Shown here: positions 21,021 through 54,531 of the stretch, one piece after another
Position numbering within the stretch: position 1 is the first letter of the stretch
How the letters are laid out: every line of letters starts with the position of its first letter
Program-made: the position numbers and the translations under genes
Notes under the pieces: generated by a model
What the model saw: the letters and a program-made list of their open reading frames with translations, nothing else
Told to the model about the DNA's origin: nothing
The model's database searches: none
Assembly: GCA_903916735.1 (NCBI GenBank)
Contig: CAIWXX010000085.1
Location: forward strand, 7,883-71,882
Length of the DNA: 64,000 nt
Source: an uncultured Acidobacteriota bacterium
Lineage (GTDB): Bacteria > Acidobacteriota > CAIWXX01
Direction: 5' to 3'

Positions 21021-21251
21021 TAGTATGTGATCGGTGAAATCTGTGTATAGAATGGCAAAAGTTGGGATAGGGCGGAATCGTGAATTCCTCTCAGGAAGCC
21101 GGGAAGAAAGGAATTCAGGAATGACTAATAACCCCACCGCTGGTCGATATAAAAATCCGTTCCTGCTTTCCTCTCTTCCTGCATTCCTGAGAGGTTCGGG
21201 TGCGATGGTTGTCAAAGCCGCCTTGTTTGGTTGCGGCTATGCCGCGTTAGG
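21021..21251 (+). repeat. Modular AGGAA/TTCCT hairpin element, copy 1 (left L1, core A, right R1)
   Basis: Arms CTCTCAGGAAGCCGGGAAGAAAGGAA and TTCCTGCTTTCCTCTCTTCCTGCATTCCTGAGAG; ends in TTGGTTGCGGCTATGCCGCGTTAGG. Confidence 0.85.
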
Positions 21252-21290
21252 TAACTGGGAACCAGCCACCAAGAACCTCTCGTGGAATTT

Positions 21291-22097
21291 ATGAATAAGA
21301 CCGCACTCGTCGTCCCATGCTATGACGAAGCACGAAGGCTCGATCAGGAGGCCTTTTCCGCGGCGGTCGTTGAGAAGAAGAATTTGCACATTCTCTTTGT
21401 CAACGACGGAAGCCGCGATGAAACGTCCAAGATCCTCAGAGACCTTTGTGCGCGCTACCCGGCACAATTGAGTCTTCTCGATTTAAAAACCAACACCGGC
21501 AAGGCAGAAGCTGTCCGTCGCGGGGTGTTGCTTGCATCGAAAAACAACCATACCTATATAGGCTATTGGGATGCCGATCTTGCCACACCCTTGAGCGCCG
21601 TCGCCGCATTCGAAAAAACGCTCGATGACAACCCTCACATCAACCTAGTCATGGGCGCACGCGTGAAGCTCCTCGGCCGGCGCATCGATCGGCGGGGTAT
21701 CCGGCATTATGCCGGTCGAGTGTTCGCCACATTTGCTTCCGCGGCCATCGGCCTGGCTGTTTATGATACTCAGTGCGGAGCGAAGCTGTTCAGATGGACA
21801 GAGAATGTGGAAGCGATTTTCAGCAGGCCGTTTCACGTGAACTGGACATTCGATGTCGAGATACTCGCCCGCCTCAAGATGCTTCACCAACTTAATGGCG
21901 GCCCGTCGGTCGAGGATTCCACCATCGAATATCCTCTTGAACAATGGGTTGATGTCGCCGGTTCCAAGGTAAGAGTCATCGATTTCGTGATCGGTGCCTG
22001 GGAAATCACGAAAATTTTCGGCATTCTCCACGCTCCCGGATTCGAAAATCGTGCGAAGGAGCTCACGCGTTCTCGGAAGAGCGACCTGGGGAGATGA
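21291..22097 (+). CDS. Glycosyltransferase family 2 (polyprenol-phosphate glycosyltransferase-like)
   Basis: VVPCYDE, FVNDGSRD, NTGKAEAVRRG, YWDADL, and DTQCGAKLF. Confidence 0.9.
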   Translation: MNKTALVVPCYDEARRLDQEAFSAAVVEKKNLHILFVNDGSRDETSKILRDLCARYPAQLSLLDLKTNTGKAEAVRRGVLLASKNNHTYIGYWDADLATPLSAVAAFEKTLDDNPHINLVMGARVKLLGRRIDRRGIRHYAGRVFATFASAAIGLAVYDTQCGAKLFRWTENVEAIFSRPFHVNWTFDVEILARLKMLHQLNGGPSVEDSTIEYPLEQWVDVAGSKVRVIDFVIGAWEITKIFGILHAPGFENRAKELTRSRKSDLGR

Positions 22098-22196
22098 GTG
22101 CGCATCGTATCGGGAACAGGCGCGGGGCCGCAAGGATGATGGGCACTGGAGAACTGATGCCTCCGAGGACTGAGGACTGATAGCGAGGAACAAAAA

Positions 22197-23039
22197 ATGG
22201 CAATACACCCGCTTCCCGAAAACCTTCCGACTGACGATCTACTTCAGCTCGCTCATCGAGGCGACAACGAGGCATTCAATGCGATCATACTGCCATGGCA
22301 GAAACCGCTTTTTGCGTTTCTCTACCGCATGGCGGCGCATAAGATGGATGCTGAGGATCTCATCCAGGAGACCCTCATCCGGGCTCTGGAAGAGCTCCGC
22401 CTGTCAGCAGGTCACGAACATGTGAAAATATGGCTCTTCGGCATCGCCGCTTGCACAGCTCTTGAGCATCTCGCCCATTGCCGGCGCTGGCGCTCAGATG
22501 CGCATCTCATTGCGGAGCAATCAGAGGACTCGGATCCGGTTGCACAGGAGCTCATTAGTGAAGCCATTGCTGCACCGGGGTTTGCTTTCGATATTCGGGA
22601 ACACATCGCGTTTTGCTTCACGTGCATCGGCCGATCACTTGCTCCGGCCGATGTCGCGTTGCTCCTGCTCCATGATATCTTCGATTTCACAGAGATTGGA
22701 TGCTCCGGCGCCTTGGGGATTGCCGAGGAATCGTTGCCCGGGCAATTGAAATCGGTGCGCGCCGACATGAATAACAGTTACAAGAGCTATTGCAAACTCG
22801 TGACTCCCGAAGGTCGTTGTAACCAATGCCGAGCTCTTCGCGAAGGAATCCCAAAAGCCTGGCGAGGCGAAGATCTGGAAAAAATCGAGGCGGACTCCAG
22901 TCAGGAATCATCTGATGGGACTCAGTTCAAAATGCTGCTTCGGATTGTCAGAGAAGCTGATTTGGAAAATGGCCGAAGCAGCCACTACCACAGTCTCCTG
23001 TTCGATGGGTTGAGCCATCAGGAAGATGCACATCCTTAA
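22197..23039 (+). CDS. ECF-type RNA polymerase sigma factor with Cys-containing C-terminal extension
   Basis: Region 2 reads AEDLIQETLIRAL...KIWLFGIA; a region-4-like segment LLLHDIFDF follows; C-terminus contains CKL...CNQC. Confidence 0.7.
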   Translation: MAIHPLPENLPTDDLLQLAHRGDNEAFNAIILPWQKPLFAFLYRMAAHKMDAEDLIQETLIRALEELRLSAGHEHVKIWLFGIAACTALEHLAHCRRWRSDAHLIAEQSEDSDPVAQELISEAIAAPGFAFDIREHIAFCFTCIGRSLAPADVALLLLHDIFDFTEIGCSGALGIAEESLPGQLKSVRADMNNSYKSYCKLVTPEGRCNQCRALREGIPKAWRGEDLEKIEADSSQESSDGTQFKMLLRIVREADLENGRSSHYHSLLFDGLSHQEDAHP

Positions 23040-23252
23040 CCTGGCCTAGCCAGAACCAAAGAAGGAGGTCGCACAAATCGCAAGTCCGGACTTCTCAGGA
23101 AGCAAGGAAGGGAGGAACGGATTTTGATATCGACCAGTAGTGGTTCCATAAACTATTCCTGAATTCCTTTCTTCCTGTCTTCCTGAGAGGAATTCACGAT
23201 TTTGCCCTGTCACAACTTTTGGCATTTTATGCACAGATTTCACCGGTAACAC
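23034..23252 (-). repeat. Modular hairpin element, copy 2 (L1, core A, R3), inverted relative to copy 1
   Basis: The reverse complement matches copy 1 (GTGAAATCTGTG...GTGAATTCCTCTCAGGAAG...CTGGTCGATAT.AAAATCCGTTCCT). Its end overlaps the sigma-factor TAA. Confidence 0.85.
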
Positions 23253-23543
23253 CCCAAAATGCTTCGATCTTCTCCAACATCTTGAAACCTCGGCGCAAAA
23301 TATTCGTCATTAATTTATTAAGGTTCGGTTCAACATGATTGTGAGTTTCAACGACAAGGACTGGAAGCCACACGATAAAAAACGAGGAGAACGATATCGA
23401 CGCCATCCAGACAACAGCCCGGATACAAGAAAGGACGATTCGAAAATGCATCCTCGGCACCGGCTTTAGACGTGGAGCCATCTCCTCTGCCTCTTCGGGG
23501 ATGCTGGATGTGGATCATCGACATCGCGCACATTCGGGCCGTA

Positions 23544-23552
23544 TGCTATAAT
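23544..23552 (+). promoter_or_regulatory. Extended -10 promoter element
   Basis: TGcTATAAT about 65 nt upstream of the ATG at 23616. Confidence 0.5.
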
Positions 23553-23615
23553 TTAAAATTGGATTAGTGGCGGCTTTATTGTGCTGATCAGACAGCGGCA
23601 TGAAAGGCGAGGCAT

Positions 23616-24128
23616 ATGTCGAGCTGGAGCATCTCATTCCCGACTTCAGGATCCGGGATGCCTGTGTCGATGGATGCGTCACGGACCAAGAGTCAGAGCG
23701 ACGCCAAGAATGCGCGCGAAGTCGAGGATCTGAAAACAAAGGACGCCAAGGTCCGGGCGCACGAACAGGCTCATGTGGCAGCGGCGGGTCCATATGCAAA
23801 GGGCTCTCCTCATTACGAGTACGTCACGGGGCCTGATGGGAAGAGATATGCAGTGGGCGGTGAAGTCGAGATCGACACCTCGCCGATTCCAAATGACCCC
23901 GACGCAACTGTCAGGAAAGCAGAGACGGTCAAGCGAGCGGCGCTGGCCCCAGCCGACCCTTCCGCTCAGGATCGTCGCGTTGCCGCCGAAGCAGATCAGA
24001 TGGAACGTCAAGCCCAGACGGAAAAGAGCCAGGAGCAGGTACAACAAGCAGTCGCTCAGACCTATGACGGGAATGGCCTCAAGGCATCCTCCAAACCTCA
24101 GCCGTTTGCTTTCGATTTTTCCGTCTAA
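23616..24128 (+). CDS. SprA-related family protein (putative metalloprotease CJM1_0395-like)
   Basis: [32 protein letters not shown], and [20 protein letters not shown] match the family pattern. Confidence 0.8.
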
Positions 24129-24153
24129 TCGTGCCGGGGATGAGGAGCTTGTA

Positions 24154-24597
24154 ATGGAAAATGTGATCGTCTTCGAGGACAGGTTGACGCGGGCTGTCGC
24201 AATCAGGTGCGATTTGTTGCACAAGCTGTATCCGGGCGAATCATTCGAACCGTTGCGTCACTTGCCGGATCTTTATCGATTCTTCTGGCATCTCGCCTTC
24301 GATATGGAAATCATACCTGCTGTTCGGCATTATGCAGCAAGCCTCGCGTTCTATATCTTCTCCACCCTCGACTATGTTTCCGAAGACACTCCGGTCGCGA
24401 CGGGATATCTGGATGATCTGGCTGTGAGCATCCGAGGATTTCGCAGCATTGAAGCCGAGCTGGGGCCGGCGAAAATCGCCGAGCATTGGAAGTCGATCGA
24501 GTCCCTGGCGCTTCTCATCCCGCGGACTGAGGAGCTCTTTTCACGCCATCTTCCCGATCGCGTCGAAATAAAAATATCGCTCTATCTGCAGAGATAG
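24154..24597 (+). CDS. DUF1232/YkvA-like protein
   Basis: YIFSTLDYVSED...GYLDDLAV resembles the Y..SP.D..PD..G.LDD motif; GAGGAG precedes the ATG at 24154. Confidence 0.65.
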   Translation: MENVIVFEDRLTRAVAIRCDLLHKLYPGESFEPLRHLPDLYRFFWHLAFDMEIIPAVRHYAASLAFYIFSTLDYVSEDTPVATGYLDDLAVSIRGFRSIEAELGPAKIAEHWKSIESLALLIPRTEELFSRHLPDRVEIKISLYLQR

Positions 24598-24662
24598 TAT
24601 CGAGCGGAGTCACGCTCCATCTGCGAGTCCCGACGGAGAGAGGCCGGCCTTCGCGATCATCC

Positions 24663-25080
24663 TCAATTCACATGCAATCGCACAACTCCGATCACGATGG
24701 TCGCAATCGTGAGAATGGATCCCGTTTTGACGTACTCCCAAAATGTGATTTCGACTCCTTCACGATGCACACGCTGAACGACGATCAAGTTCGCAATGGA
24801 TCCGAGTATGATGAGATTGTCGGCGGGTGTTGATGACATGGCGAGCACAAGCCAGCCGCGCTGCGGATCAGCGAGATGAGACATCAAGGGTTTGAAAACA
24901 GGAACAGCAGGGACGTTGCTGACAAGATTTGAGAGAAGAGAGGCGACGACGCTCATCACGCTCATATTGTCCAATCCAAATCGATAGTCGATATTATCTA
25001 CATTTGTAGTAAAAACTGACTTCTCAACCCCGGCAATGACAATGAAGAGACCGATGAAGAGCACTCTTTCAAAAACATTT
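24663..25080 (-). pseudogene. C-terminal fragment of an ArsB/NhaD/YbiR-type anion transporter
   Basis: LFIGLFIVIAGVE, SNLVSNVPAV, and AMSSTPADNL...GSIANLIV (usually SSTLAGNL). The N-terminal two thirds are missing. Confidence 0.7.
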
Positions 25081-25141
25081 GAAGAAGCGGCCGGAAACAG
25101 GTATGGTGAGAGGCTATGAAACAGAAGCAGAGCAGGGCGAT

Positions 25142-25681
25142 ATGAATTTTGTAGAGACTGCACTCAGAGGGGCCTTCCTGATTGATCCGGTGCTATTCGA
25201 GGATGAAAGAGGGTATTTCGCGACATCTTTCTGCCGGAGGGAGTTCGAGGCGCATGGGCTCACCCCGAACCTCGCTCAGATCAACATCTCCTACAATAAA
25301 AAAAAAGGGACTTTGCGCGGGATGCACTTTCAGAAAACCCCTCATCCGCAAGCCAAACTCGTGCGATGCACAATCGGCGCGGTTTATGACGTCATCCTCG
25401 ACCTGCGCCCTGGATCGCCGACTTTCATGAAATGGACGGCAGCGACGTTGACATCACAGAATCGCAGAATGTTGTATGTCCCTGATGGGTTCGCACATGG
25501 ATTTCAGACCGTGGAAGACTGTACAGAAGTTGTCTACAACGTATCGGATTTTTATGCTCCCGAGCTGGCGGATGGTGTGAGATGGGACGACCCGGCCTTC
25601 GGGATCCAATGGCCGGCCATCGAGGAACGCATCATGATCGCTCGCGATCTTCAATATCCGGATTTCCATCCACCGACCTGA
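25142..25681 (+). CDS. rfbC: dTDP-4-dehydrorhamnose 3,5-epimerase
   Basis: DERGYF, GTLRGMHFQ, QAKLVRC, DLRPGSPTF, GFAHGFQT, and GVRWDDPAFGIQWP. Confidence 0.93.
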   Translation: MNFVETALRGAFLIDPVLFEDERGYFATSFCRREFEAHGLTPNLAQINISYNKKKGTLRGMHFQKTPHPQAKLVRCTIGAVYDVILDLRPGSPTFMKWTAATLTSQNRRMLYVPDGFAHGFQTVEDCTEVVYNVSDFYAPELADGVRWDDPAFGIQWPAIEERIMIARDLQYPDFHPPT

Positions 25682-25714
25682 GGTGCTCGCTATATCGTAG
25701 CCACCGGATTTAGG

Positions 25715-25752
25715 ACAGATCGGATGCGGGGTATCTGAGTTCATCTGCGGTT
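25715..25752. repeat. Relic of an ATCTG(T/A)GTTCATCTG(T/C)GGTT-type palindromic repeat
   Basis: ATCTGAGTTCATCTGCGGTT at 25733-25752 resembles the motif at 43270-43299. Confidence 0.5.
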
Positions 25753-25764
25753 CCCTTCGGTGCG

Positions 25765-25959
25765 TTAGGCGCCTTAGCACGCGATCCTTACCAACAGCTT
25801 GTTAGAGCCTCCAGAGCACGTATCGTAGGCGTAGTCGTAAAGGCGTAAAGGTGGACGAAGGGCACCGAACGACTACGTCTACGTCCGCGTCTACGATTAC
25901 GACCACGTGGTCTGCGAGCTCATCGAGCCCTTCATTCAAGGCGGAGCCGTGGAATGAAC
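25765..25959. repeat. Hexamer-unit palindromic repeat, copy B (195 bp), direct repeat of copy A
   Basis: Same ends as 20846-21019 and 21 bp longer, from internal gains of about 18 and 3 bp. Confidence 0.85.
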
Positions 25960-26011
25960 CTGGATTCTTCGTGTGCGGTTTTTCTGACATATAGCTATTT
26001 CAGGGCTGATA

Positions 26012-26040
26012 TTGAACTTCTGAGAAGCCCTTGATAGAGT
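26012..26040 (+). promoter_or_regulatory. Sigma70-like promoter for mtnA-tsaD
   Basis: TTGAAC-N17-TAGAGT, 33 nt upstream of the GTG start. Confidence 0.5.
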
Positions 26041-26073
26041 GGATGTTTCAATCCTCTAAAAAGGAGAGACATA

Positions 26074-27120
26074 GTGCTTCCGGCGATTGAATGGAGAAAC
26101 GGTACCGTTGTCATGGTGGATCAGCGTCGGCTGCCGACAGTCGAAGAATATTTCCACGCACACAGCTATGAAGACGTCGCAACGGCAATTGAGACGATGG
26201 TGATTCGCGGCGCACCCGCAATCGGCGTCGCCGCCGCCATGGGAGTGGCGCTCGGGGTTTCATCCCTTGATGAAAAATTGAGTGGCGATCAACTACGGGC
26301 TGAATACGAAAAAATTCACTCCCGGCTTCAACGCACCCGGCCCACTGCCGTTAATCTCTTCTGGGCACTCGCGCGCATGCGCACGGTTTTTGAAAAGTAT
26401 CTGGGGAATCCCGATCTCCGCCGCCGTCTCGTCGAAGAAGCGCTATCGATCGAACGCGAGGACATCGATATGTGCCGGCGCATCGGGCAATATGGCCGTG
26501 AATTAATCCAGAAAGGCGCCTGCATATTGACCCATTGCAACGCAGGCGGCCTGGCCACGGCAGGCTACGGCACGGCGCTCGGCGTTATTCGAGCCGCGTT
26601 CGAGGCCGATTCATCAGTGACTGTTTTTGCCGATGAAACGCGCCCTTTCCTGCAAGGCGCACGTCTCACGGCCTGGGAGTTGATGAAGGATCATATTCCG
26701 GTCACTCTCATCACCGACAACATGGCCGGATTCATGATGAATCGCGGCGCCATCAATTACGTGATTGTCGGGGCCGATCGGATTGCTGCCAATGGGGATA
26801 CAGCGAATAAGATCGGCACTTATTCGGTCGCGGTTCTTGCCCGCGAAAACGGTATCCCGTTTTATGTTGCTGCTCCGGTTTCGACATTCGATCTGAGTCT
26901 GGTGAGCGGGGAGCAGATCCCGATTGAAGAACGATCACCGGATGAAGTGACCAATATACAAGGGGTGCGAATCGCCCCTCAGAACGTGGTTGTCCGCAAT
27001 CCGGCTTTTGATGTGACGCCGGCACGATTTGTGACGGCCTTTATAACAGATCGCGGCATTCTCAAGGCTCCTTACACGGAAACCCTGCGGCTGATGCGTG
27101 ATGCTGGTTCTGGGGATTGA
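26074..27120 (+). CDS. mtnA: S-methyl-5-thioribose-1-phosphate isomerase
   Basis: [50 protein letters not shown], and [18 protein letters not shown]. Confidence 0.95.
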
Positions 27121-28096
27121 GACCTCATGCGATGAGGCGTCGGCCGCGGTCGTCGCCGACCGGCGCACCATCCTGTCCAACATTATTTACTCCCAGGATC
27201 ACATCCACTGCCAGTTTGGCGGAGTTGTTCCGGAGCTTGCGAGTCGTGAGCATTTAAGAAAAATCGACGGTGTTGTCGCGGCGGCCTTGGAGCAATCCGG
27301 CGTCGGACTCTCCACGATCGACGCCTTTGCGGTCACATGTGGGCCGGGGCTCATCGGATCGCTTCTTATCGGGATCTGCTACGCCAAATCGCTGGCCTAC
27401 TATTGCGACAAGCCTCTATACGGCATAAACCATCTCATCGGGCACATGCACGCCGTTTTTCTGGAGCATGACGAGCCTGCAGCGCCCTATTTGACTCTCC
27501 TGGTTTCCGGCGGCCACACAAGCCTCCTTCACACCGGCGACGATCGAGTGACACGCACTATCGGACGCACGCGGGACGATGCCGCAGGCGAGGCATTTGA
27601 CAAGGTTGCCAAGATGCTGGGGCTGGGTTATCCAGGAGGCCCGCACATCGAAAAAAGAGCGGCCGAGGGCAAAGCCATCATTCGTTTCTCACGAGCGAAG
27701 ATGTCGGATGGGAGTCTGGACTTCAGCTTCTCGGGGCTCAAGACGGCGGTTCTTTATCACCTTCGTGAGAATCCAGTCACGGATCGTTTGATCGCCGACG
27801 TCGCCGCATCATTCCAAAAGGCTTGTATTGAGTCGCTTGTGCAGCAGACCGGGCGAGCGCTGGATCAATTTCCGGCCACCGCGCTTCTTCTTTGCGGAGG
27901 CGTCGCGTGCAACACACCCCTTCGGACGGCGCTCTCCCATCTTGCAGCGCGCTACGCCCTCCCTTGTCTCTATCCTCCTCCCCGGCTCTGTGCCGACAAC
28001 GGCGCCATGGTGGCTGCCGTTGCACTGGCCGGACGAGCCGATCCGGTGTCGCCTTTGGATCTGGATGGAGACCCGAATCTCCGGATACAATCCTAA
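27098..28096 (+). CDS. tsaD: tRNA N6-adenosine threonylcarbamoyltransferase
   Basis: [67 protein letters not shown], and DNGAMV. Confidence 0.95.
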
Positions 28097-28135
28097 ATCG
28101 GGAGGGGGTTCACAGCGACGGTTGCTGGAGACGAC

Positions 28136-29002: not shown

Positions 29003-29046
29003 TCTCGAACGGCCTGTTCCCCGCTCTGACGGTTGAGACCGCCGGA

Positions 29047-31587: not shown

Positions 31588-31601
31588 ATGGAAATCCATC
31601 G

Positions 31602-41897: not shown

Positions 41898-42125
41898 TAG
41901 TGTCAAAATGGCGAAATGTCGACACGAAATGGCAGGATCTTCGGAACATATAAGATCCCACCCGGACCTCTTAGGAATGCAGTAAGTAAGGAAACCAGGA
42001 ACGAACCGACCATTGCCGGCACACTGCCTTCCGTTCCTGCATTCCTCTTTTCCTGGCTTTCTGAGAGGTCTGGAGTGGCTCTGTGGTGCGGCCACCATCT
42101 TTGGTTCTGGCTCCGCCAGGTTAGG
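41898..42125 (+). repeat. Modular hairpin element, copy 3 (L2, core B, R2)
   Basis: TAGTGTC...GGCGAAATGTCGACACGAAATGGC...GGAAACCAGGAACGAACCGACCATTGCCGGCACAC...TTGGTTCTGGCTCCGCCAGGTTAGG. Confidence 0.88.
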
Positions 42126-42218: not shown

Positions 42219-43007
42219 ATGGGAACGCCCATTGTTCAGGTTGATGCATTCACGAACAAGCCGTTTTCCGGCAACCCGGCAGCAGTCTGCCTTTTATCAA
42301 GACCGACGGCGGATAATTGGATGAAGGATGTCGCCCGGGAAATGAACCTTTCAGAGACGGCTTTCTTATGCCGGCAGGAGGATGGTTACAATCTGCGATG
42401 GTTCACACCGACCATCGAAGTCGATCTTTGTGGTCATGCAACCTTGGCCAGCGCGCATGTGCTCTGGGAGGAAGGTCACCGGAAGCCTCAGGAGGCCATA
42501 CGTTTCTCCACGAAAAGCGGGCGCCTGACCGCCACTCGCGATGGAGATTGGATCAAGCTGGATCTGCCGGCCAAGCACGAAGAGCCCGCCGTCGCACCGG
42601 TGTCGCTTTTGGATGCACTCGGCGTTCAAGCCGAGTACATCGGGAAACACCAATCCGACTATATTGTGCTCGTCTCTTCCGAAGAGATTGTGCGGCGAGC
42701 CAAGCCGAATCACAGCATGCTGCGCACGCTGCCTGTGCGAGCTGTCATACTGACGGGCCACTCATCGACGGCCGGATTCGATTTTGTGTCACGGTTTTTC
42801 GCCCCGGGATCCGGTATTGACGAAGACCCCGTAACGGGATCGGCCCACTGCTGTCTCGGCCCGTTCTGGAGCGCCCGATTAGGCAAGAAAGAATTGACCG
42901 CTTACCAGGCATCGGATCGCGGAGGCATCATCCAGGTCAGCGTACGCCAGGATCGGGTGGTGCTTGGGGGTCAGGCTGTCACGGTGATGCGGGGAACGAT
43001 CCTCTAG
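42219..43007 (+). CDS. PhzF-family isomerase (YddE-like)
   Basis: QVDAFTNKPFSGNPAAV, NLSETAF, EVDLCGHATLA, and EDPVTGSAHC. Confidence 0.93.
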   Translation: MGTPIVQVDAFTNKPFSGNPAAVCLLSRPTADNWMKDVAREMNLSETAFLCRQEDGYNLRWFTPTIEVDLCGHATLASAHVLWEEGHRKPQEAIRFSTKSGRLTATRDGDWIKLDLPAKHEEPAVAPVSLLDALGVQAEYIGKHQSDYIVLVSSEEIVRRAKPNHSMLRTLPVRAVILTGHSSTAGFDFVSRFFAPGSGIDEDPVTGSAHCCLGPFWSARLGKKELTAYQASDRGGIIQVSVRQDRVVLGGQAVTVMRGTIL

Positions 43008-43224
43008 TGTCTAAGCGGCGAAATGTCGACACGAAATGGCAAGATCTTCGGAATATGCAAGATTCCATCCGAACCTCCAAGGAATGCAGGAAGTAAGGAA
43101 ACCAGGAACGAACCGACCATTGCCGGCACACTACCTTCGGTTCTTGCATTCCTGGCTTGCTGAGAGGTCTGGAGTCGCTCTGTGGTGCGGCCACCGTCTT
43201 TGGTTCTGGCTCCGCCAGGTTAGG
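43005..43224 (+). repeat. Modular hairpin element, copy 4 (L2, core B, R2), direct repeat of copy 3
   Basis: Closely similar to 41898-42125; begins at the TAG stop of the PhzF gene. Confidence 0.88.
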
Positions 43225-45038: not shown

Positions 45039-45041
45039 GAA

Positions 45042-46367: not shown

Positions 46368-46379
46368 AAGGAGAAAGAG

Positions 46380-47120: not shown

Positions 47121-47320
47121 CCGATTGTCGACCGATTGGATCAATGACGGAGGGCTTTGGCATGGTTCTCTCCTTCAGAATGCGAGGTTGGAAATCGGTC
47201 CACGAAGGGGGAATCAAGCCGGGATGTTCTACGGATGTAGTAAGAAAACCTGGAAAAATCAATGCCAGTTGTGGTATGTAAGTAGGAGGAGGCCGATGAA
47301 TCGGCCATAAGGGGCCCGCA

Positions 47321-47902
47321 ATGAGTGAATGGAACAGCACGGGATACCATGAAATTCGGTTGGAACATAAACAGATACTGTTTGTGTTCCTGATCGCCGC
47401 CGTCATTGGAGTCGCTCTTTTCCTGCTGGGTGTCATGGTCGGGCGGAAAAGCCCTGCCGAAACTGCAGCGGCTGAAGGAACGGAGGTTGTGGAGAAGGTT
47501 AAGGCCGAAGCGCCGAAGCCCGCCGTGGATCACACGACGGAGGCGAGTTTCTTCGACAAGCCGTCGAAGCAGCCGGCAGCCGTCAACGAAGAACAGCCGG
47601 CCGCAACCCCGCCGGTCGCCAGGGCGGTTGACCATCATGCTGAGACGCCGCCTCCGCCAACCCCCAAGCCCGGGCATTACTACTCGATTCAATCGGGTGC
47701 TTTCAGCACCGAGGCCAACGCAAAGCATTCCGCGGTGGAACTTGAAAAAGCCGGCTACCCCATAACGATTCTGCCTCCTGGAGCCAAGGATACAAAGAAA
47801 CTATACCGCGTGCTTGTCGGTGAATTTGCGACGCGAGATGAGGCGATTGGGGCAAAGAAGCGTCTCGAGGGCATGGGGTTCAAGAATCTGGTTGTGAGAT
47901 AG
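47321..47902 (+). CDS. SPOR-domain cell-division protein (FtsN/DedD-like)
   Basis: Single TM, Pro/Ala-rich linker, then YSIQSGAFSTEANA...YRVLVGEF. Confidence 0.85.
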   Translation: MSEWNSTGYHEIRLEHKQILFVFLIAAVIGVALFLLGVMVGRKSPAETAAAEGTEVVEKVKAEAPKPAVDHTTEASFFDKPSKQPAAVNEEQPAATPPVARAVDHHAETPPPPTPKPGHYYSIQSGAFSTEANAKHSAVELEKAGYPITILPPGAKDTKKLYRVLVGEFATRDEAIGAKKRLEGMGFKNLVVR

Positions 47903-47907
47903 GCATC

Positions 47908-49641
47908 ATGGAAATAGTCGGTATTCGCTCGCTCTTGGACTTTCTGATCGAGGAAGGACTGATTGGGCACACGGATGCCGACAGGGTTCTCAAGGAAATG
48001 AAGCTGCAGGGCGGGAGCATTTTCTACAATCTTCTGAAGCTCAAGCTCGCAACCGCCCCTAAGCTTTTTTCTTTCGTCGAAGAGAAGCTTGGACTTCTTT
48101 ATTGGTATGCCGAAGAGGTTTCCATCGACACGACGTTGCTCGATTTGATCCCCCCAAATATCGCACATTTTTACAAGATTGTGCCCGTCAAGCTCGATCA
48201 GAATATCCTGACACTGGCGGCGTCGGCTGTGAGCTCCGCGCAACTTCTGCCGGCGCTCGAGGAGTTGACCGGATATAAAATCCGGGTCCTTCTGACTCAC
48301 CCGGCCATCCTCAGTCGCGCTCTCGAAAAATATTACAGTCCGAGGGTCGAAGCAGGCGTTCTGGATTCCAGTTCCGGTGAGAAAATTTTCGTCCTGAAGG
48401 ATGACGATAAACAGATTCGGCCTGTCAACATTCATATGATGAACGAGAGCTCCTCGGCCGCCGACTGGCTCCGGACAATCCTCGCCGAAGCCGTCATCAA
48501 GCGCAGCCGGCAGGTGATGTTTCGGCAGAACGATCACGATGAAATTCTCGTGTATTTCGTCAAGGAAGGGGAGCCTTACATCGAGTTCCGGCTGGGGGCT
48601 ACGCTGTACCAATCCATTGCGCTCTTCGTGGACTATCTCACGAGCGTCGGGCCGTTCGATACGCAGGTGCCGCAGGAAAAGCGCGCCAAGATCAAGATCA
48701 GCGATCGGACGATTTATCTTCAGATCAGTTCAGTTCCAGTGACGCATGGGCGGAGCCTCACGTTCGATCTTTATGATGAGAAGAGCTTCGAGCAACTCTT
48801 TGAGACCCTTTTCGATGCGCGAACCGGCGAAGCGTCCTATTTATCCAAACTGATCCAGCAGCGGAAAGGGCTCATCATTCTTTCTGTCGCGCCGGGCACT
48901 CAGAAAAAGCTCATTCTGTATTCGACTCTCGCTGAAGCGCACAAGACGACACCGGCCGTCTTCACACTCGAGGAATCCATTTTCTACGCGCTGCCCGGGA
49001 TTCACCAGATTTCCTTCGGCAGCGCATCACACAAGATTTTCTCGCGGATGCTGGAAACATCACTCCGACAGCACCCCGATGTGCTGGCCATCGATACCGT
49101 CCGCGATGCAGCGTCGATGGAACTGGCGCTCCTGAGCAGCAGCCGGTGTCTGGTGCTGGCGACATGCACATTCCCGGATCTGCGGTCTGTTTTGCGATGG
49201 CTCACGGAAAGCGGCCTGCGGCCGGCCCTCAAAGCGCGCCTCATCCCAACCGTCCTCCAATCCACATCGGTTCTCCGCCTCTGTAAATATTGCAAAAAAG
49301 AGGCGCTATTAACCGAGGAGGAAATCGCTCAGTACGATCTGGCGGACTATCGCGAAACGGTATTTTGGTTCAATTCCGGATGCCCCTTATGCAAAGGCGT
49401 CGGTATGCTGATGGAGGAGGTCCTCTGTGAGGTGACGCCGATCGACGAAACAATCCTTTATTATTTGGATCATCCCGAACAGAGCGCAGCTGTACGCAGG
49501 CAGGCGGGTCGAGTCGGACCCGGCGGGCTGGATAACAAACGACCGAATTTCCCATCACTCCTCCAAAAGGGCGTCGCCCTGGCGGCTGCAGGCAAGGCGG
49601 ATATTCGGGACGTGCTCGCGAAGTGCGCGTTCCTCGTCTAG
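47908..49641 (+). CDS. GspE/PilB-like secretion ATPase paralogue with degenerate catalytic motifs
   Basis: PilB architecture is recognisable (N-domain, LRQ.PD..., CKYC/GCPLC zinc motif). Walker A reads VAPGTQKK, Walker B reads IDTVRD, and the His box is absent. Confidence 0.75.
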   Translation: MEIVGIRSLLDFLIEEGLIGHTDADRVLKEMKLQGGSIFYNLLKLKLATAPKLFSFVEEKLGLLYWYAEEVSIDTTLLDLIPPNIAHFYKIVPVKLDQNILTLAASAVSSAQLLPALEELTGYKIRVLLTHPAILSRALEKYYSPRVEAGVLDSSSGEKIFVLKDDDKQIRPVNIHMMNESSSAADWLRTILAEAVIKRSRQVMFRQNDHDEILVYFVKEGEPYIEFRLGATLYQSIALFVDYLTSVGPFDTQVPQEKRAKIKISDRTIYLQISSVPVTHGRSLTFDLYDEKSFEQLFETLFDARTGEASYLSKLIQQRKGLIILSVAPGTQKKLILYSTLAEAHKTTPAVFTLEESIFYALPGIHQISFGSASHKIFSRMLETSLRQHPDVLAIDTVRDAASMELALLSSSRCLVLATCTFPDLRSVLRWLTESGLRPALKARLIPTVLQSTSVLRLCKYCKKEALLTEEEIAQYDLADYRETVFWFNSGCPLCKGVGMLMEEVLCEVTPIDETILYYLDHPEQSAAVRRQAGRVGPGGLDNKRPNFPSLLQKGVALAAAGKADIRDVLAKCAFLV

Positions 49642-49714
49642 CACCGATCTCCGCATTCCTCGTTCTCAAACCCCCATTTGACAGTCGCGGCATCCGGCCG
49701 CGATACTGAGTTGT

Positions 49715-51172
49715 ATGCCGATTGGGCCGTTTGAAAAATTGCGCCGCGAGGTGATCGATGCGGGGCTCTGCACTCGCTGCGGTTCCTGCGTCGGCGTGTG
49801 TACAGCTGAAGTCATCGAATTTGCCGATCCTCTCGGGCGTTGTTTACCGATTCTCAAAGACAACGAACCGTGCGCGAAATGCGCCGCCATGTGTGTGAAT
49901 GGATGCTCAGGTCAGGACGTTCATTTTCCGACTCTCGCCCAATTCACCCATGGATCTCCTTCGACCGACACACGTCTGGGAGCCGTGAAAAGTCTCTATG
50001 TGGGATATGCCGGAGACGAGGAGATACGGAAAGCCGGCGCCTCCGGAGGGGTCCTGTCAGCAGCGGCCATCTACATGCTGGAATCGGGAATTGTCGATGG
50101 CGCTATCGGGCTCTCTCCGAACGCCTCCGAGCCGTGGAAATTTGAGCCGCGAATCGCACGCCATCGGGACGAGGTTCTCGGTTGTGCTCAGAGCAAATAT
50201 TCCATTTCGCCGGTGAATACGATCCTCCGGCAATTGGAACAGGAACCCAAAGGATTTCGCGCTGCCATGGCGGCAATTCCATGCCAGGTTCATTCCATTC
50301 GCAAGCTTCAGGCTGATGGCTTCCCCGCTGCATGCAAGATCACGCACATACTCGGCTCCTATTGCGGCAACATCTTGCATTTCGATGCCGTCCGAGGATT
50401 TTTGGCCAAGCATCGCGTGAAGGACTACAGGCAGATCGCTCGACTGGAATATCGAGCCGGCGAATGGCCGGGCAAAATGCGCGTGACACTGGTTGATGGC
50501 CGCCTGCTGGAGATGCCCAAGTTTTACGCCAATTACCTCATCCCGTTCTACATGATGCGCCGATGCTTGCTCTGTACGGATTTGGCCAACGAATTCGCCG
50601 ATATCTCAGGGGGAGATGCGTGGGCCCCGATTTATGAAGAACGAGGCAAAGGATTCTCTCTGATCATGGGGAGAACCGAGCGCGGCCGACAGGTTCTGGA
50701 TGAAATGATCAGGGAAGGCCGGCTGACGGTTGAACCCATCGAGTTGGAAGCGGCCGTCGGCATGCATTCTCACATGCTGGATTTTAAAAAGCGAGGGGCC
50801 TTCTTGCGGATGGATTCGTTGCGGTTACGACACAAACCAGTCCCATCCTATGGCTATCATCCTCTGACACCGGCTCCGTTCGGCAGGCTGGCTTTTGAGA
50901 TGCTTCTTCGGACGATCTATGCGGTCTGCTCCTGGAGCCTCAGCCAGTGGGCGGTCGCACGGCTCCCAACGGGAATCACGGGACGGATTTTCGAACAGGC
51001 ACGCCGCCGCTGGAAAGGACTCACGGCGTCGACCAAACGAAAAGGATTTGGGACGATTCAGTTCGAAGTCGAACCGCCACGGTTATTGCAACACGAAAGA
51101 ATCTCGCCTATTGAAGATCACTCGCGAGGGGTTGAAAAAAACGAGATCAGCGAGAGACATGTAAAAGCATAA
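49715..51172 (+). CDS. Coenzyme F420 hydrogenase/dehydrogenase beta-subunit-like (FrhB/FdhB) Fe-S protein
   Basis: CTRCGSCVGVC, CAKCAAMCVNGC, GASGGV, QSKY, PCQ, GSYCG, RCLLCTD, and ADISGGDAW. Confidence 0.85.
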   Translation: MPIGPFEKLRREVIDAGLCTRCGSCVGVCTAEVIEFADPLGRCLPILKDNEPCAKCAAMCVNGCSGQDVHFPTLAQFTHGSPSTDTRLGAVKSLYVGYAGDEEIRKAGASGGVLSAAAIYMLESGIVDGAIGLSPNASEPWKFEPRIARHRDEVLGCAQSKYSISPVNTILRQLEQEPKGFRAAMAAIPCQVHSIRKLQADGFPAACKITHILGSYCGNILHFDAVRGFLAKHRVKDYRQIARLEYRAGEWPGKMRVTLVDGRLLEMPKFYANYLIPFYMMRRCLLCTDLANEFADISGGDAWAPIYEERGKGFSLIMGRTERGRQVLDEMIREGRLTVEPIELEAAVGMHSHMLDFKKRGAFLRMDSLRLRHKPVPSYGYHPLTPAPFGRLAFEMLLRTIYAVCSWSLSQWAVARLPTGITGRIFEQARRRWKGLTASTKRKGFGTIQFEVEPPRLLQHERISPIEDHSRGVEKNEISERHVKA

Positions 51173-51230
51173 CCACGGGTTTCTTTTGTGGCGTCTCACA
51201 TCGAGGAAAAAGGGATCCGAGCGTTGCCTT

Positions 51231-52013
51231 CTACTTGGCTATATCCGTCGTGACGATCGGCTGAGGATCCCCGATGATCTGAGTCAGTTGCTCAATCAAG
51301 GCATGGCCATCATCCTTGCAATAAGGCTTTGTGTAGAAGGAGTCGAGATCGAGCGGCCGATGAAGAGTGATGCTGCACGTCTTGAACATTTTTCCAGGAA
51401 ACTGCTTGTGCATAAGCAAATTTCTGAATCCGTCGACGCGAACCGGCACGACAATGGCTTTTGTGCGGTGGAGAATCAGTGGAACGCCTGGCCGAAATGG
51501 GGCTCCTTCCCGTGTCGTGCCCGCCGGGAAATGAAGCAGCCAGCCGGCGGCAATTGCCTGTTCAATGCGTGCCGCACCCTCAAAATCAACCGGCCGTTTC
51601 ACTTCCTGCCCGCCGTCACGGAAACTACGCCTGATTGTGACTCCGCCGACTTTGGTCATGAGCGAGGTCAGAAGATTTTTCTTCATTGTCTCTTCAGCGG
51701 CCGAGAACCGGATAATCGGGCCTTCCCATGGAAACATGTGCCTGACGTAGATCACGTCGAAGAAGGCGATGGCCTCCATGAAATATGTCTGATGATTCGA
51801 TAGAAAAACCACTCTTTTTTTCGGCAGGGTTTCAAGAATTTCGTCGCCCATCACGCGAATCCTGTTCAGGAGATGGAAGTAGGGCAGAGAAAATCCGAGA
51901 CCAAAGCCGGCGATGATCGCCCGGCGGATCCAGCGATCCAGGTAAGTCTGCTCGAATAACTCGGATTCAATGGGGCTCGAAATGATGGAACTGTCCTCTG
52001 TTCGAGTCAGCAT
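51231..52013 (-). CDS. Lysophospholipid acyltransferase (PlsC family)
   Basis: SNHQTYFME acyltransferase block and FPAGTT...VVPVRVDG. The start is uncertain. Confidence 0.8.
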   Translation of the reverse strand: MLTRTEDSSIISSPIESELFEQTYLDRWIRRAIIAGFGLGFSLPYFHLLNRIRVMGDEILETLPKKRVVFLSNHQTYFMEAIAFFDVIYVRHMFPWEGPIIRFSAAEETMKKNLLTSLMTKVGGVTIRRSFRDGGQEVKRPVDFEGAARIEQAIAAGWLLHFPAGTTREGAPFRPGVPLILHRTKAIVVPVRVDGFRNLLMHKQFPGKMFKTCSITLHRPLDLDSFYTKPYCKDDGHALIEQLTQIIGDPQPIVTTDIAK

Positions 52014-52195
52014 ATGCCGGCTCCCGAGGCAAAATGAAACAGAGGACATTCGAACCGGAACGTGATCGGAAAAGTCATGCCCCTAATGGAAATGTCCCCC
52101 GTCATTATTCATTCCCGAATCAAGATGGAATTGTGGTCCGGGCGGAAGAAAATGTCAACTCCGGTACAGGCGCACGGGCCTTTTATCTTTTCAGG

Positions 52196-53068
52196 CTACC
52201 CATTTTTCCGGACAATCAGATCTGCCAGCAATCCGGTGGCTCCGAGCTGGACGCCCGAAATGATTGTCATCAGTGAAATGTCCGTGATGTTCTTGTGAAC
52301 GAGAACCTCATAGATACCGAATCCGACGCCGAAAGCGATGAGCAAGACGCTCATCGGAAGGAAGACGCGGAGCGGGTTGAAATAGATGATTGTCCGGAGG
52401 ATCACCTGCAGGAAAAGCAGGGTATCACGGATCGGGCGGATCTTTGAGTGGCCGGTACGGGCGTAGTAGTTGATAGGCACGAAAACAACTTCTTTGCCGT
52501 CTGAGATGAAGGCAAGAGTCGATGTCATCGTGAAGGAGAAGCCGTTCGATATGATATGAAAATATTCTTTGATTCCCTGCTTCTTGAAATAACGCAATCC
52601 GGAATTCAAGTCGGGAATGGTCTCTCCGGAAAGGTAGCTAGCGAGCTTGGTCAAGATCCATTTCGCGGGCCGCCGGATGAGAGGTATCTTCCGCTTTCGG
52701 CCGGTTCGAGCGCCGATGACCATGTCGCACCCCTCTCGAGCATCCAGGATCTTGATGGCTTCTTCAACATGATAGGTATCATCGGCATCGGTGATCAGGA
52801 TATCATCGAAACGCGCATGGTGAATCCCAACTTTCAGGGTTGCGCCATAGCCGCGGTTGGTCCTGTTCTTGAGGACGGTGGCGCCGTGCGATCGAGCCGC
52901 CTCAGCCGTATTGTCCTTGGATCCATCATCAACCACCAGGATCTCGAATAAATCCATCGAACCGAAATAAGCAAGTAATCCCCGGCGATATGAATCCACC
53001 ACCGAACCGACGGAATTTTCCTCGTTAAACGCCGGCATCAAAATTGTGATCGATCTTTTTTCTAACAT
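52196..53068 (-). CDS. Glycosyltransferase family 2 with C-terminal TM helices
   Basis: MPAFNEE, VVDDGSKD, NRGYGATLK, TDADDTY, and DLNSGLR. Confidence 0.92.
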   Translation of the reverse strand: MLEKRSITILMPAFNEENSVGSVVDSYRRGLLAYFGSMDLFEILVVDDGSKDNTAEAARSHGATVLKNRTNRGYGATLKVGIHHARFDDILITDADDTYHVEEAIKILDAREGCDMVIGARTGRKRKIPLIRRPAKWILTKLASYLSGETIPDLNSGLRYFKKQGIKEYFHIISNGFSFTMTSTLAFISDGKEVVFVPINYYARTGHSKIRPIRDTLLFLQVILRTIIYFNPLRVFLPMSVLLIAFGVGFGIYEVLVHKNITDISLMTIISGVQLGATGLLADLIVRKNG

Positions 53069-53232
53069 GCGCGTGTAGAGTAAGTCCGAACGGGAAAAAA
53101 CTCAACCCCCTATTCTTGCCATCAATCCGCGAGTAGAACCGGCGGATTGAGCTACTCGGAGAATCGAAAAGCGCCGCCGTTGGACCGGCGCCGGCAGTGG
53201 GTGTTCCCGCAGGAGAATCGCTGGTGAAGAAA

Positions 53233-53368
53233 CAGGAACGGATTTTAATATCGAGCAGCGGTGGTTTCATAAGTCATTCCTGCATTCCATTCTTTCTGGC
53301 TTCCTGAGAGGTTCGGGTGCGATGGTTGTCGAAGCCATCTTGTTTGGTTGCGGCTATGCCGCGTTAGG
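53233..53368 (+). repeat. Modular hairpin element, copy 5 (truncated; core A inverted, R1)
   Basis: CAGGAACGGATTTTAATATCGAGCAG... is the reverse complement of core A and is followed by the copy-1 right end TTGGTTGCGGCTATGCCGCGTTAGG. Confidence 0.85.
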
Positions 53369-53616
53369 GGTCAGAGGTCAGGGATGTGTTGTGTTTCCAA
53401 ACTGTGTGCATCGTTGCAATCATACTGGCACGCGCCTCAGATTCTGCAAATCCTCCGGCCCCATTTCCGGCACTAAACTCCAACCTCTAGCCCCTTGCTG
53501 CCTCAGCAAGGCCTCGCCGCGATCCCAGACATCCCACTTTGTAGAATTTCCGAGACGTATCTATACGCACGTTCTGAATCGCGGAGACCCTGAAAAGCCC
53601 CGCGAACACCTTGTGA

Positions 53617-53769
53617 AAAATCAATCCGAACATTGAGTACATCATAGGAGACATGGCCACAGCAAGAATCGCCGGCCAAATGGACTTGGGAATCTGCGCA
53701 TTTGATTCTCTAAACTATCTCATTGACGAAGACATGCATTCGAAGAGGTGTGCATTTGGTACATTTTGA
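53617..53769 (+). pseudogene. Internal fragment of a class I SAM-dependent methyltransferase
   Basis: NIEYIIGDMATARIAGQMDLGICAFDSLNYLIDED matches the GDM...FD...C.FDSLNY region. The frame is flanked by stops. Confidence 0.5.
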
Positions 53770-53850
53770 CTTTGGCATTACTCTGAGGACTTGACGCAAA
53801 AGCTATTCTTCTCGATTGCCACACAGTAGAATGAGGGCGAGGAATCCGTC

Positions 53851-54318
53851 ATGAATCCCAAGATCAGGCTCATGGCCGTGTTCAGCGCCTGCCTGCTCGG
53901 AGGCATTGCCGGCTACGCCTATTTTTTCAGCTCGAAAGCAATCATCAGGCGTGCGATCGCATCAAGCAAGCAATCGTTTGAAAAGCGGCACATGGCTGGA
54001 TTCATGGAAATCATCTCGAAAAATTTCAGCGATGAAAACGGCTTCTCATCTGCTGACATTCAGGAAGGCACAGGACAGGCGTTTTCGAGCTTTGAGTCTT
54101 TCAAAATAACTCTGGAAAACATGGAAATCACCATTATCGATAAAAAGACGGCTCGATGCACCTGCCTGGCAACCGTTGTTGCGACGACCCACGAAAAAGA
54201 AAAATACCTGGTGCTCGGGACCACCGAATCCGGCCAGCGAATTGACCTGGACCTCCTCAAAGAATCCGACGGCCACTGGCGTGTTGTTCGAGCGCGTGGC
54301 TACGCTCGCCCATCCTGA
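53851..54318 (+). CDS. Exported hypothetical protein (NTF2-like fold probable)
   Basis: N-terminal TM segment; alpha-helices followed by beta strands ending W.VV.A; GAGG RBS. Confidence 0.6.
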   Translation: MNPKIRLMAVFSACLLGGIAGYAYFFSSKAIIRRAIASSKQSFEKRHMAGFMEIISKNFSDENGFSSADIQEGTGQAFSSFESFKITLENMEITIIDKKTARCTCLATVVATTHEKEKYLVLGTTESGQRIDLDLLKESDGHWRVVRARGYARPS

Positions 54319-54531
54319 TGCGGCATAGCCGCAACCAAACAAGATGGCTCCGATAACCATCGCTCCAGAACCTCTCAGGAATGCAGGAAGTAAGGAAACC
54401 AAGAACGAACTGATCATCGCCGGCACACAGCACACTACCGTCCGTTCCTGCATTCCTCCCTTCCTGGCTTCCTAAGAGGAATTCATGATCCTGCCCTATC
54501 ACAGGTCATCCCATCTTATGCACAGAGTTGA
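54314..54531 (-). repeat. Modular hairpin element, copy 6 (L1, core B inverted, R1)
   Basis: The minus strand reads left end as in copies 1 and 2, then the reverse complement of core B, then TTGGTTGCGGCTATGCCGCATCAGG. The end overlaps the TGA at 54316-54318. Confidence 0.85.

Follow-up and report, generated by a model that had tools for sequence, protein, structure and literature searches.

Mosaic hairpin repeats of an acidobacterial genome are probably decayed non-autonomous mobile elements and not a shuffling system

How did six repeats with near-palindromic arms come to carry their ends and cores in different combinations and orientations? The repeats lie in a 64,000-nucleotide stretch of DNA from an uncultured Acidobacteriota bacterium (the window; positions 7883-71882 of contig C85 in a 5.37-Mb assembly of 183 contigs), and an initial annotation of this sequence had proposed that they form a shuffling system, in which recombination within the arms inverts or exchanges the cores. 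Our analysis leads to a different answer, to which we assign a probability of roughly 0.7: the six loci are old, decayed non-autonomous mobile elements, and their mosaics and flips are sporadic by-products of recombination, without a dedicated shuffling system. Such elements are best classed as non-autonomous descendants of a transposon that is target-specific and has neither terminal inverted repeats nor a target duplication, and the apparent shuffling system would mostly be the wear and tear of an old repeat family.

All six repeats were confirmed in the window by reading of the sites and by repeat detection, and each has AGGAA/TTCCT inverted arms around a core. The module strings X-A-Y1, X-A-Y3, Z-B-Y2, Z-B-Y2, (truncated)-(A inverted)-Y1 and X-(B inverted)-Y1 match those of the initial annotation exactly, in which X and Z had been named L1 and L2, and Y1, Y2 and Y3 had been named R1, R2 and R3. 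A full copy is a non-coding unit of ~227 nt, composed of a ~65-nt left end (X or Z), a ~100-nt hairpin that spans CTCTCAGGAA to TTCCTGAGAG, and a ~57-nt right end (Y). X and Z are homologous over their first ~35 nt, and Y1, Y2 and Y3 are variants of one right end, in which TTTGGTT is followed by a stem of 5 bp with a 3-nt loop and then by GTTAG. The arms are formed by four phased AGGAA/TTCCT octamers (NNNAGGAA) in inverted arrays around core A or B, and the cores (~35-40 nt) are non-coding and without obvious payload. As the 3-nt spacers between octamers differ between the left and the right arm, the orientation of a hairpin can be read. The six copies and their modules are located in the window as follows.

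21024-21250, plus strand: copy 1, X-A-Y1, canonical, major subfamily
21020-21023: left-flanking tetranucleotide of copy 1, ATAG
21024-21087, plus strand: X left end of copy 1
21088-21193: hairpin of copy 1, with AGGAA arm (21088-21121), core A (21122-21159) and TTCCT arm (21160-21193)
21194-21250: Y1 right end of copy 1, with TTTGGTT (21226-21232), stem-loop GCGGC-TAT-GCCGC (21233-21245) and terminal TTAG (21247-21250)
23036-23253, minus strand: copy 2, X-A-Y3, canonical orientation, with Y3 (23036-23091), hairpin (23092-23189) and X (23190-23253)
41901-42124, plus strand: copy 3, Z-B-Y2, second subfamily, with Z (41901-41967) and hairpin with core B (41968-42067)
42068-42124: Y2 right end of copy 3, with stem-loop CTGGC-TCC-GCCAG
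43008-43223, plus strand: copy 4, Z-B-Y2, with Z (43008-43074), hairpin (43075-43166) and Y2 (43167-43223)
53233-53367, plus strand: copy 5, left-truncated, with an inverted A-type hairpin remnant (53233-53310) followed by Y1 (53311-53367)
54315-54542, minus strand: copy 6, X-(B hairpin inverted)-Y1, with Y1 (54315-54371), hairpin (54372-54478) and X (54479-54542)

In copy 5 the right arm is the reverse complement of the canonical A left arm, and in copy 6 a complete B-type hairpin, arms and core together, is flipped relative to the ends. Both cores were therefore correctly said to occur in both orientations in the window, but the unit that flips is the whole hairpin and not the core alone. 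The initial annotation was also right in that none of the copies in the window has a recombinase beside it.

When the whole assembly was searched by blastn with the six copies and with the separate modules, ~150 loci were obtained, including 101 full-length copies. The ends, each read inwards from its outer border, were clustered without supervision and gave three classes, Y (102 ends), X (77) and Z (23), and the cores fell into the classes A (71) and B (30). Of the 101 full copies, 99 combine a single X or Z end with a single Y end; the copy at C52:577 shows the same X/Z-to-Y arrangement when read on the other strand, and the copy at C10:16923 has Y at both ends in a head-to-head arrangement. 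The following module combinations were counted.

X-A-Y1: 54 copies
Z-B-Y2: 21 copies
X-A-Y3: 10 copies
X-B-Y2: 5 copies
X-A-Y2: 4 copies
Z-B-Y1: 1 copy
X-(B inverted)-Y1: 1 copy (copy 6 of the window)
Y2 (reverse complement)-B-Y1: 1 copy
odd Y variants: a few copies

Ends are indeed mixed between cores, as the X-B-Y2, X-A-Y2 and Z-B-Y1 copies demonstrate, but three fixed combinations cover 85 of the 101 full copies, and the copies thus largely fall into fixed subfamilies, the outcome that the initial annotation had itself regarded as contrary to shuffling. The linkage is strong both between left end and core (Fisher p = 2.5e-17) and between Y1/Y2 and core (Fisher p = 8e-15). Mean pairwise identity within the subfamilies was 0.86, 0.88 and 0.82, and not one identical pair was found; with 82-88% identity among its copies, the family must be old. 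In relation to neighbouring open reading frames (ORFs), which were used as a crude proxy for genes, 31 copies are co-directional, 18 are anti-directional, 21 lie between divergent and 14 between convergent genes, so that there is no strong bias in orientation.

Recombinants make up 12-15% of the copies, and in some of them the exchange lies within a module. The left end at C54:65654 is Z-like at its start and X-like afterwards, the core at C76:62370 is of type A on its 5' side and of type B on its 3' side, and at C137:62187 the crossover is located within the left arm. Together with the head-to-head copy, such loci bear out the statement that simple copying of miniature inverted-repeat transposable elements (MITEs) cannot explain every copy. 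An arm-spacer test revealed that whole hairpins are reversed relative to the ends in copies 5 and 6 and at C10:16923, and these were the only three flipped loci among ~125 with a readable orientation. Recombination between copies is therefore real, but it is rare, as are the flips, and neither gives a sign of a dedicated active system. The canonical B arms are a flipped version of the canonical A arms, which means that at least one flip is ancient. The window is atypical of the genome in holding two of the three flipped hairpins. A single inversion between copies 5 and 6 was considered as the source of both, and every combination of breakpoints in arms and stem bases was worked through; none of them yields the observed pair from two canonical elements.

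Alignment of 54 copies with their flanks defined the boundaries of the element (marked by a caret). At the left, similarity begins directly after a flanking TTAG (TTAG^TATCTGATCGG..., with the pattern TTAG^T(A/G)TCT...), and at the right it stops at ...GGCTATGCCGCGTTAG^G, with the pattern ...GCCGCGTTAG^G. Terminal inverted repeats are absent from this alignment, the left T(A/G)TCTGATCGG and the right ...GCCGCGTTAG not being inverted repeats of each other. Among 92 copies, the left-flanking 4-mer was TTAG in 44, with TTGG, TTAA and ATAG as other common forms and the rest described as one-base variants, and the right terminal 4-mer was TTAG in 58. The two 4-mers were identical in only two of 64 copies with a non-TTAG member, and a target-site duplication is unsupported in this genome because the left and right variants among the 92 copies do not match. 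In the window, the element ends abut or supply stop codons at three places. The terminal TTAA of copy 2, read on the plus strand, provides the TAA stop (23037-23039) of the upstream ORF 22197-23039, the left-flanking CTAG of copy 4 includes the TAG stop (43005-43007) of the ORF 42219-43007, and the terminal TCAG of copy 6, again read on the plus strand, gives a TGA stop (54316-54318). This is expected, since TTAG and its complement CTAA contain TAG and TAA.

Incomplete and composite copies were informative with respect to the ends. At C119:12476 the terminal tetranucleotide of a solo Y end directly precedes a full copy, which creates a tandem with a single TTAG, and the Z module is flanked by TTAG on both sides and can precede X (C54:47225, C65:10001 and C82:157492). 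Three copies of 133 nt (C92:37215, C82:37411 and C82:131696) have no hairpin, carry a common sub-variant of X and join X to Y1 at one and the same junction, GAATTCCT^GAGAGG, which suggests that the ends alone are enough for spread; these copies represent either a short form that has spread or a slippage deletion that recurred identically. At C176:3681-3763 a remnant of the element with a near-absent core was noted, in which ~11 nt separate the AGGAA arm from the TTCCT arm.

Which autonomous element could have supplied these ends? The right-end motif TTTGGTTNNGGCTNNGCCNNGTTAGG, with 20 specified bases for which about one chance match is expected in 1.2e12 positions, was scanned against one genome per species and occurred in at least 117 stretches from many phyla, among them Acidobacteriota, Planctomycetota, Chloroflexota, Gamma-, Delta- and Zetaproteobacteria, Bacteroidota, Armatimonadota, Gemmatimonadota, Verrucomicrobiota and Bacillota. 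Eighty of these loci were fetched and analysed. The terminal stem covaries, with standard pairs at the free stem positions in 75 of the 80 loci and four pair types. Two kinds of sequence were found upstream of the motif. One consists of mini-elements with the left end TTAG^T.TCTTAC..TGAAAT..GCAAAATGGCAA and hairpins of other octamers, the minimal form having ~70 nt (locus L079). The other, at about a dozen loci, is a homologous gene start (N-terminus like ...GVLSCFDRV...) at a distance of 54-72 nt and on the opposite strand. A complete ORF of 505-511 amino acids was present in the three loci with enough flank (L073, L105 and L136), and past the stop codon of L073 and L105 a ~45-nt X-like left end is followed by CTAA. 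The parent unit measures ~1.7 kb, with its gene on the strand opposite to the X-to-Y direction. Relatives with a gene in place of the core, for which the initial annotation had recommended a search, thus do exist, but only in other genomes.

One element is present in identical form at nine insertion sites (L194-L202), which always have TTAG at the left, whereas the right terminus is ...GCCGGGTTGG, ending in TTGG, and the flanks are otherwise unrelated. With TTAG at the left and TTGG at the right in nine of nine cases, a 4-bp target duplication is excluded. A palindrome GGAACCGCGAATAGATCAGCGGTTCC, similar to those of repetitive extragenic palindromic (REP) elements, adjoins five of the nine insertion sites in the set L195-L202, and there are hints that the parent element prefers targets that can form hairpins. 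A full-length parent element with the same two ends and one in-frame TGA is also present in the Acidobacteriota genome G018 (locus L193, G018:C2:1858600-1861300). This copy sits within an array of CGTAATCG-type octamers, that is, it is nested in another octamer-arm repeat.

In the genome under study, tblastn with three family members detected a single gene relic of 68 amino acids (C111:13292-13495, about residues 330-397 of the protein), which is immediately preceded by an X end together with a complete AGGAA arm, and an intact parent gene was absent when the assembly was searched by tblastn with the parent protein. Nor was a gene-bearing copy revealed by the solo Y ends, as the 2.6 kb upstream of ten such ends share nothing. 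With a gene relic only and a divergence of 12-18% between copies, the elements of this genome are fossils.

The element was present in two of 40 related genomes, both of the same family. The relative G001 contains hundreds of copies, many of them at contig ends. In these copies, AGGAA/TTCCT arms with other cores are enclosed by a Z-like left end and a Y end, and several copies form head-to-tail tandems with one common TTAG (including L029 and L030). Whole-hairpin flips are seen in G001 too, where either Y or the reverse complement of Z occurs as outer end. The parent gene of G001 is in broken pieces, one of them interrupted by a mini-element. An intact ORF of 578 amino acids in the same genome (L187, G001:C288:8027-9187) is 27% identical to the 505-residue protein and represents a distant paralog, which might be active where the closer copies are broken.

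The 505-residue protein had no match in Pfam, NCBIfam, PHROG, PADLOC or among sequences of the Protein Data Bank (PDB), the sole weak signal being a MarR-like match at residues ~450-500, which explains why some members carry the label "MarR family" at NCBI. The family comprises at least 7,956 clusters at 90% identity, for which the longest contig mostly has 1.6-2.7 kb, as is typical of a repeat present in many copies; at 50% identity, the clusters with E <= 1e-3 numbered 7,746. In an alignment of 66 diverse members the residues D20, R21, G104, E113, Y142, Y144, G151, P162, N170, L175, N191, E244, F251, Y318, R326 and E328 are invariant. An AlphaFold model (pLDDT 93.9, pTM 0.86) displays two blocks of long beta strands and a helical C-terminus. 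The predicted structure would be a double beta-sheet saddle with a C-terminal winged helix, most like the Rep_trans class (PF02486) of rolling-circle initiators. In a Foldseek search of this model, RepSTK1 (4cij) was the only PDB match below E = 1e-3 (E = 1.1e-4, probability 0.99), followed by archaeal and eukaryotic TATA-binding proteins and by MarR-type winged helices, and the fold matches in a viral library were likewise similar to TATA-binding proteins. The catalytic domain of Rep_trans is a sheet of two 5-strand modules whose only reported structural relative is the TATA-binding protein, with the catalytic tyrosine and a D/D/E metal site at the inner side of this sheet (PMC4797284). The motifs described for this class are an N-terminal D (N' D), RxD, T/SxY/ExG, YxKxxE and W/LxRxE (PMC5714925). 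By eye, the conserved blocks FDR and KMYDKxGxVLRIE of the 505-residue family partly resemble these motifs, including YxK and RxE, a likeness that is suggestive.

These data are consistent with the following scheme. The mini-element has kept the two asymmetric termini of the parent, the ~100-nt hairpin standing in place of the gene. The 505-residue protein may be a tyrosine nickase that cuts at TT(A/G)G by the right-end hairpin, and the element would then move as single-stranded or rolling-circle DNA to sites 3' of TTAG without target duplication. Mini-elements would have been mobilised in trans by the parent protein, an enzyme since lost from this genome. The mosaics and the three whole-hairpin flips probably go back to dispersed copies that interacted through ectopic recombination, gene conversion or template switching, for which the near-palindromic arms and the stem base could supply homology. 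More tentatively, and at somewhat less than even odds, we propose that X/Z and Y ends mark a very large, undescribed transposon superfamily that extends across phyla, in which a Rep_trans-like tyrosine nickase instead of an HUH enzyme would drive single-stranded or rolling-circle movement with insertion 3' of TTAG, in which mini-elements occur in many phyla, and in which octamer-armed cassettes of GxxExxY genes would repeatedly nest, flip and be exchanged. In the literature searched we found no description of a Rep_trans-type transposase, no paper that combines the end features of this element and none that describes the parent unit or its protein family. The present data connect abundant intergenic hairpin repeats with a ~1.7-kb unit that encodes a 505-residue protein with thousands of clusters and no domain annotation. 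If a Rep_trans-like nickase does drive transposition, it would constitute a second enzyme fold for rolling-circle or single-strand transposition, and the parent family would also explain many short contigs and breaks in metagenome assemblies.

How does this element compare to known systems? With bacterial MITEs, such as the Correia elements of Neisseria, it has in common a length of ~230 nt, the non-coding nature, 100-plus dispersed intergenic copies and the existence of subfamilies, as well as the derivation from a gene-bearing parent by gene loss with both ends kept and the frequent abutting or supplying of stop codons. In contrast to MITEs, terminal inverted repeats and target-site duplications are missing, the two ends are mutually unrelated and the inverted repeat is internal, forming the hairpin. 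Members of the IS200/IS605 family and the palindrome-associated transposable elements share asymmetric ends with a hairpin inside the end, insertion 3' of a tetranucleotide (here TTAG) without duplication, head-to-tail tandems and short derivatives with both ends. However, the parent protein has no Y1_Tnp/HUH or TnpB domain, and the Y1_Tnp elements of this genome have different ends. Similarly, IS91/ISCR elements and Helitrons lack terminal inverted repeats and duplications, have a hairpin before a conserved terminus at one end, use a tetranucleotide target and employ an enzyme related to rolling-circle replication initiators, a relation that is suggested here by the predicted fold; but theirs are HUH (Y2) enzymes, and the fold predicted here resembles the unrelated Rep_trans class. 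The elements thus behave like IS200/IS605 or IS91 and yet belong to neither, because the parent enzyme is not of the HUH type.

With respect to Rep_trans proteins themselves (RepD, RepSTK1 and the MOBT relaxases), the likeness extends from the best fold matches to conserved acidic residues, a Y-x-K ... R-x-E block on beta strands and a separate DNA-binding domain. Unlike them, the 505-residue protein gives no match at the sequence level and only low TM-scores, is about twice the size and is encoded by a 1.7-kb chromosomal multi-copy unit and not by a plasmid, a phage or an integrative conjugative element. The enterobacterial REP sequences and bacterial interspersed mosaic elements and the pneumococcal BOX elements are also intergenic repeats made from few modules in several combinations and orientations, but REP sequences are clustered palindromes of 20-40 nt mobilised by REP-associated tyrosine transposases (RAYTs), whereas one long unit with fixed terminal modules is found here and no RAYT-like gene is associated with it. 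A good model for the rare flips is offered by the hairpin-associated minute inversions of plastids, in which a segment bounded by inverted repeats flips without a dedicated recombinase (PMC12371153). There, however, the loop flips between perfect arms, whereas in the present case the core takes its imperfect arms with it when it flips, and copies have exchanged hairpins as well. As for invertons and shufflons, which combine a linked recombinase with mixed orientations within a population, the copies in the window have no recombinase beside them, and a single orientation is encountered in independent assemblies.

As a linked HUH gene (Y1 or RAYT) had been suggested as a possible partner, the Y1_Tnp (PF01797) loci of the genome were examined. 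There are 19 of them, ~1-kb units of several families with terminal inverted repeats of ~30 nt (GGGGCCAGGTCTTCA..., GGGGCCAGGTCTTCACTTTTCA...), and not one is flanked by X, Y, Z or hairpin modules, so that an HUH transposase was rejected as the partner. On C52 a partial copy of the element lies within ~1 kb of a Y1_Tnp gene as a positional neighbour only. Fragments are all that was found of TnpB in the genome. Many of the Y1_Tnp loci (for example C49:37782, C55:94718, C52:4309, C136:90 and C178:21773) are located at contig ends, which indicates that they are multi-copy and break the assembly.

Taken as a rival explanation, the initial proposal amounts to a dedicated site-specific recombination system that would act on the AGGAA/TTCCT arms and invert or swap cores as programmed variation. 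Arrays of four phased octamers make a plausible protein-binding code, and both hairpin orientations, mixed ends and two flipped copies at a distance of 945 bp are seen in the window. We nevertheless consider such a system very improbable, given the scarcity of flips, the tight linkage within fixed subfamilies, the fossil-like divergence of copies, the want of an intact parent gene, of a recombinase nearby or of related ends at the Y1_Tnp loci, the short cores devoid of obvious payload and the lack of a strong orientation bias with respect to neighbouring genes. Independent assemblies point in the same direction and bear at the same time on the suspicion, also raised at the outset, that the repeats were mis-assembled. 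Exact matches to the proteins of two genes, one lying between copies 5 and 6 and the other between copies 3 and 4, retrieved contigs from other metagenome samples. Over 53815-54477, L057 agrees with the window at 100% identity, and this overlap takes in the Y1 end of copy 6 in reverse complement together with the adjoining arm and B core. For L055 and L056 the agreement, likewise at 100%, extends to 54414, and L060 and L061 reproduce copies 3 and 4; copy 5 lies outside the coverage of these contigs. The hairpin of copy 6 (54372-54478) was thus encountered in a single orientation, copies 3 and 4 had the same sequence as in the window, and no orientation polymorphism was found in the independent assemblies of copies 3, 4 and 6. 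That the combinations of copies 5 and 6 are chimeras assembled from collapsed repeats is the least likely of all explanations. Metagenome contigs do tend to break at these elements, and L054 ceases to match within the hairpin of copy 6, where 10 mismatches and a 7-nt gap follow position 54402; this may reflect variation between strains or an assembly that strayed into a different copy. Yet the copy-6 hairpin is unique in the genome, being at most ~87% identical to any other copy and carrying a private 7-nt insertion, and was therefore not borrowed from another locus; moreover, a hairpin of ~107 nt is short enough for single reads to bridge core and ends. Only slightly better is the prospect that the repeats are structured non-coding RNA genes or cis-regulatory RNAs (a terminator, a stabiliser or a protein sponge carrying GGA motifs) that are conserved for their function and are not mobile. 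They are predicted to fold very stably (about -73 to -85 kcal/mol), their terminal stem covaries across phyla, and they are intergenic and often abut stop codons. On the other hand, no Rfam family matched at the gathering threshold in the 64-kb window, the orientation bias expressed by the counts 31/18/21/14 is not strong, the same termini bound a 1.7-kb protein-coding unit at many unrelated sites, tandem and nested copies occur and one copy interrupts a gene in G001, and the covariation of the stem would be just as well explained by a DNA hairpin that a nickase recognises.

A further alternative, unlikely but deserving more weight than the preceding ones, is connected with the origin of the hairpin. 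On at least four contigs of G001, the final ~60-110 nt of a GxxExxY gene (TIGR04256) run straight into the TTCCT arm; the outer end is Y on three of these contigs and Z in reverse complement on one. G001 has a single complete copy of the gene, on C18 and without the left arm, and the forms present in several copies are 3' fragments. Other GxxExxY genes of G001 (L049-L052; on C96, C120, C237 and C284) are enclosed by inverted octamer arms of the GCAGAGAC type, the one on C284 being a gene remnant. The genome under study contains, at C54:45881-46034, a relic of the GxxExxY gene end that adjoins a TTCCT arm with a Y2 end, and no intact GxxExxY gene was found in it; an intact gene between both AGGAA/TTCCT arms was found neither here nor in G001. 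In the scheme preferred above, the hairpin is most likely an emptied, octamer-armed GxxExxY cassette nested in the element. The alternative goes further and takes the hairpin as a separately mobile, emptied cassette of a GxxExxY nuclease that homes in either orientation into a palindromic junction (CCTCTCAGG/CCTGAGAGG) between X and Y, so that exchanges and flips would reflect the mobility of the cassette. It would account for the fact that exchange and flipping affect the hairpin as a whole, the junctions lying at the stem base, for the hairpin-less X+Y copies and their common junction, for the GxxExxY fragments that abut the TTCCT arm in G001 and continue into either outer end, for the other octamer arms around further GxxExxY genes and for the mini-elements of other phyla, which combine the same ends with quite different octamer hairpins. 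However, the genome under study has neither an intact GxxExxY gene nor solo hairpins outside the X/Y context, for which no example was found here, the crossovers inside an arm (C137:62187) or a core (C76:62370) fit general recombination better, and the hairpin-less copies may equally well be slippage deletions between ATTCCT direct repeats. Whatever their entry route, nested octamer-arm hairpins offer a tractable case for studying how palindromic cassettes invade and flip inside mobile elements.

Several observations weigh against decayed transposon derivatives with sporadic recombination, which we nevertheless prefer. Copies 5 and 6, which carry two of the three flipped hairpins, are only 945 bp apart, which is unlikely under independent random flips. 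A conserved hairpin comparable to that of the right end could not be established in the left end, and judged from the sequence, the left TTAG may be part of the target or part of the element. The full-length units in other phyla have no octamer hairpin, and we infer how it would have entered the acidobacterial mini-elements. No transposition event was observed in this genome, and no pair of empty and filled sites is available from close strains. With regard to the enzyme, no Pfam family, PF02486 (Rep_trans) included, matched at E <= 0.1, a PDB-sequence profile search returned nothing beyond the MarR-like C-terminal winged helix, and the link to Rep_trans comes from the fold search alone, with low TM-scores (0.19/0.33).

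For practical purposes, annotators should mask the ~150 loci of this kind in the genome. In the window, the stretches 20842-21019 and 25761-25959, together with a stretch of C113 near 47.9 kb, are 3' ends of a small family of paralogous genes with 86-89% identity, and an element follows directly after the stop codon in two of these three paralogs, the paralog ending at 25959 having none. When the paralogous gene end at 25888-25959 was employed as an empty-site comparison, the downstream flanks proved to be non-homologous. At 57113-57809, a 28-nt motif (CCAGCTGATCATAGCAACGAGCCGCATC-like) occurs six times with irregular spacing, probably as a repeat within a coding region.

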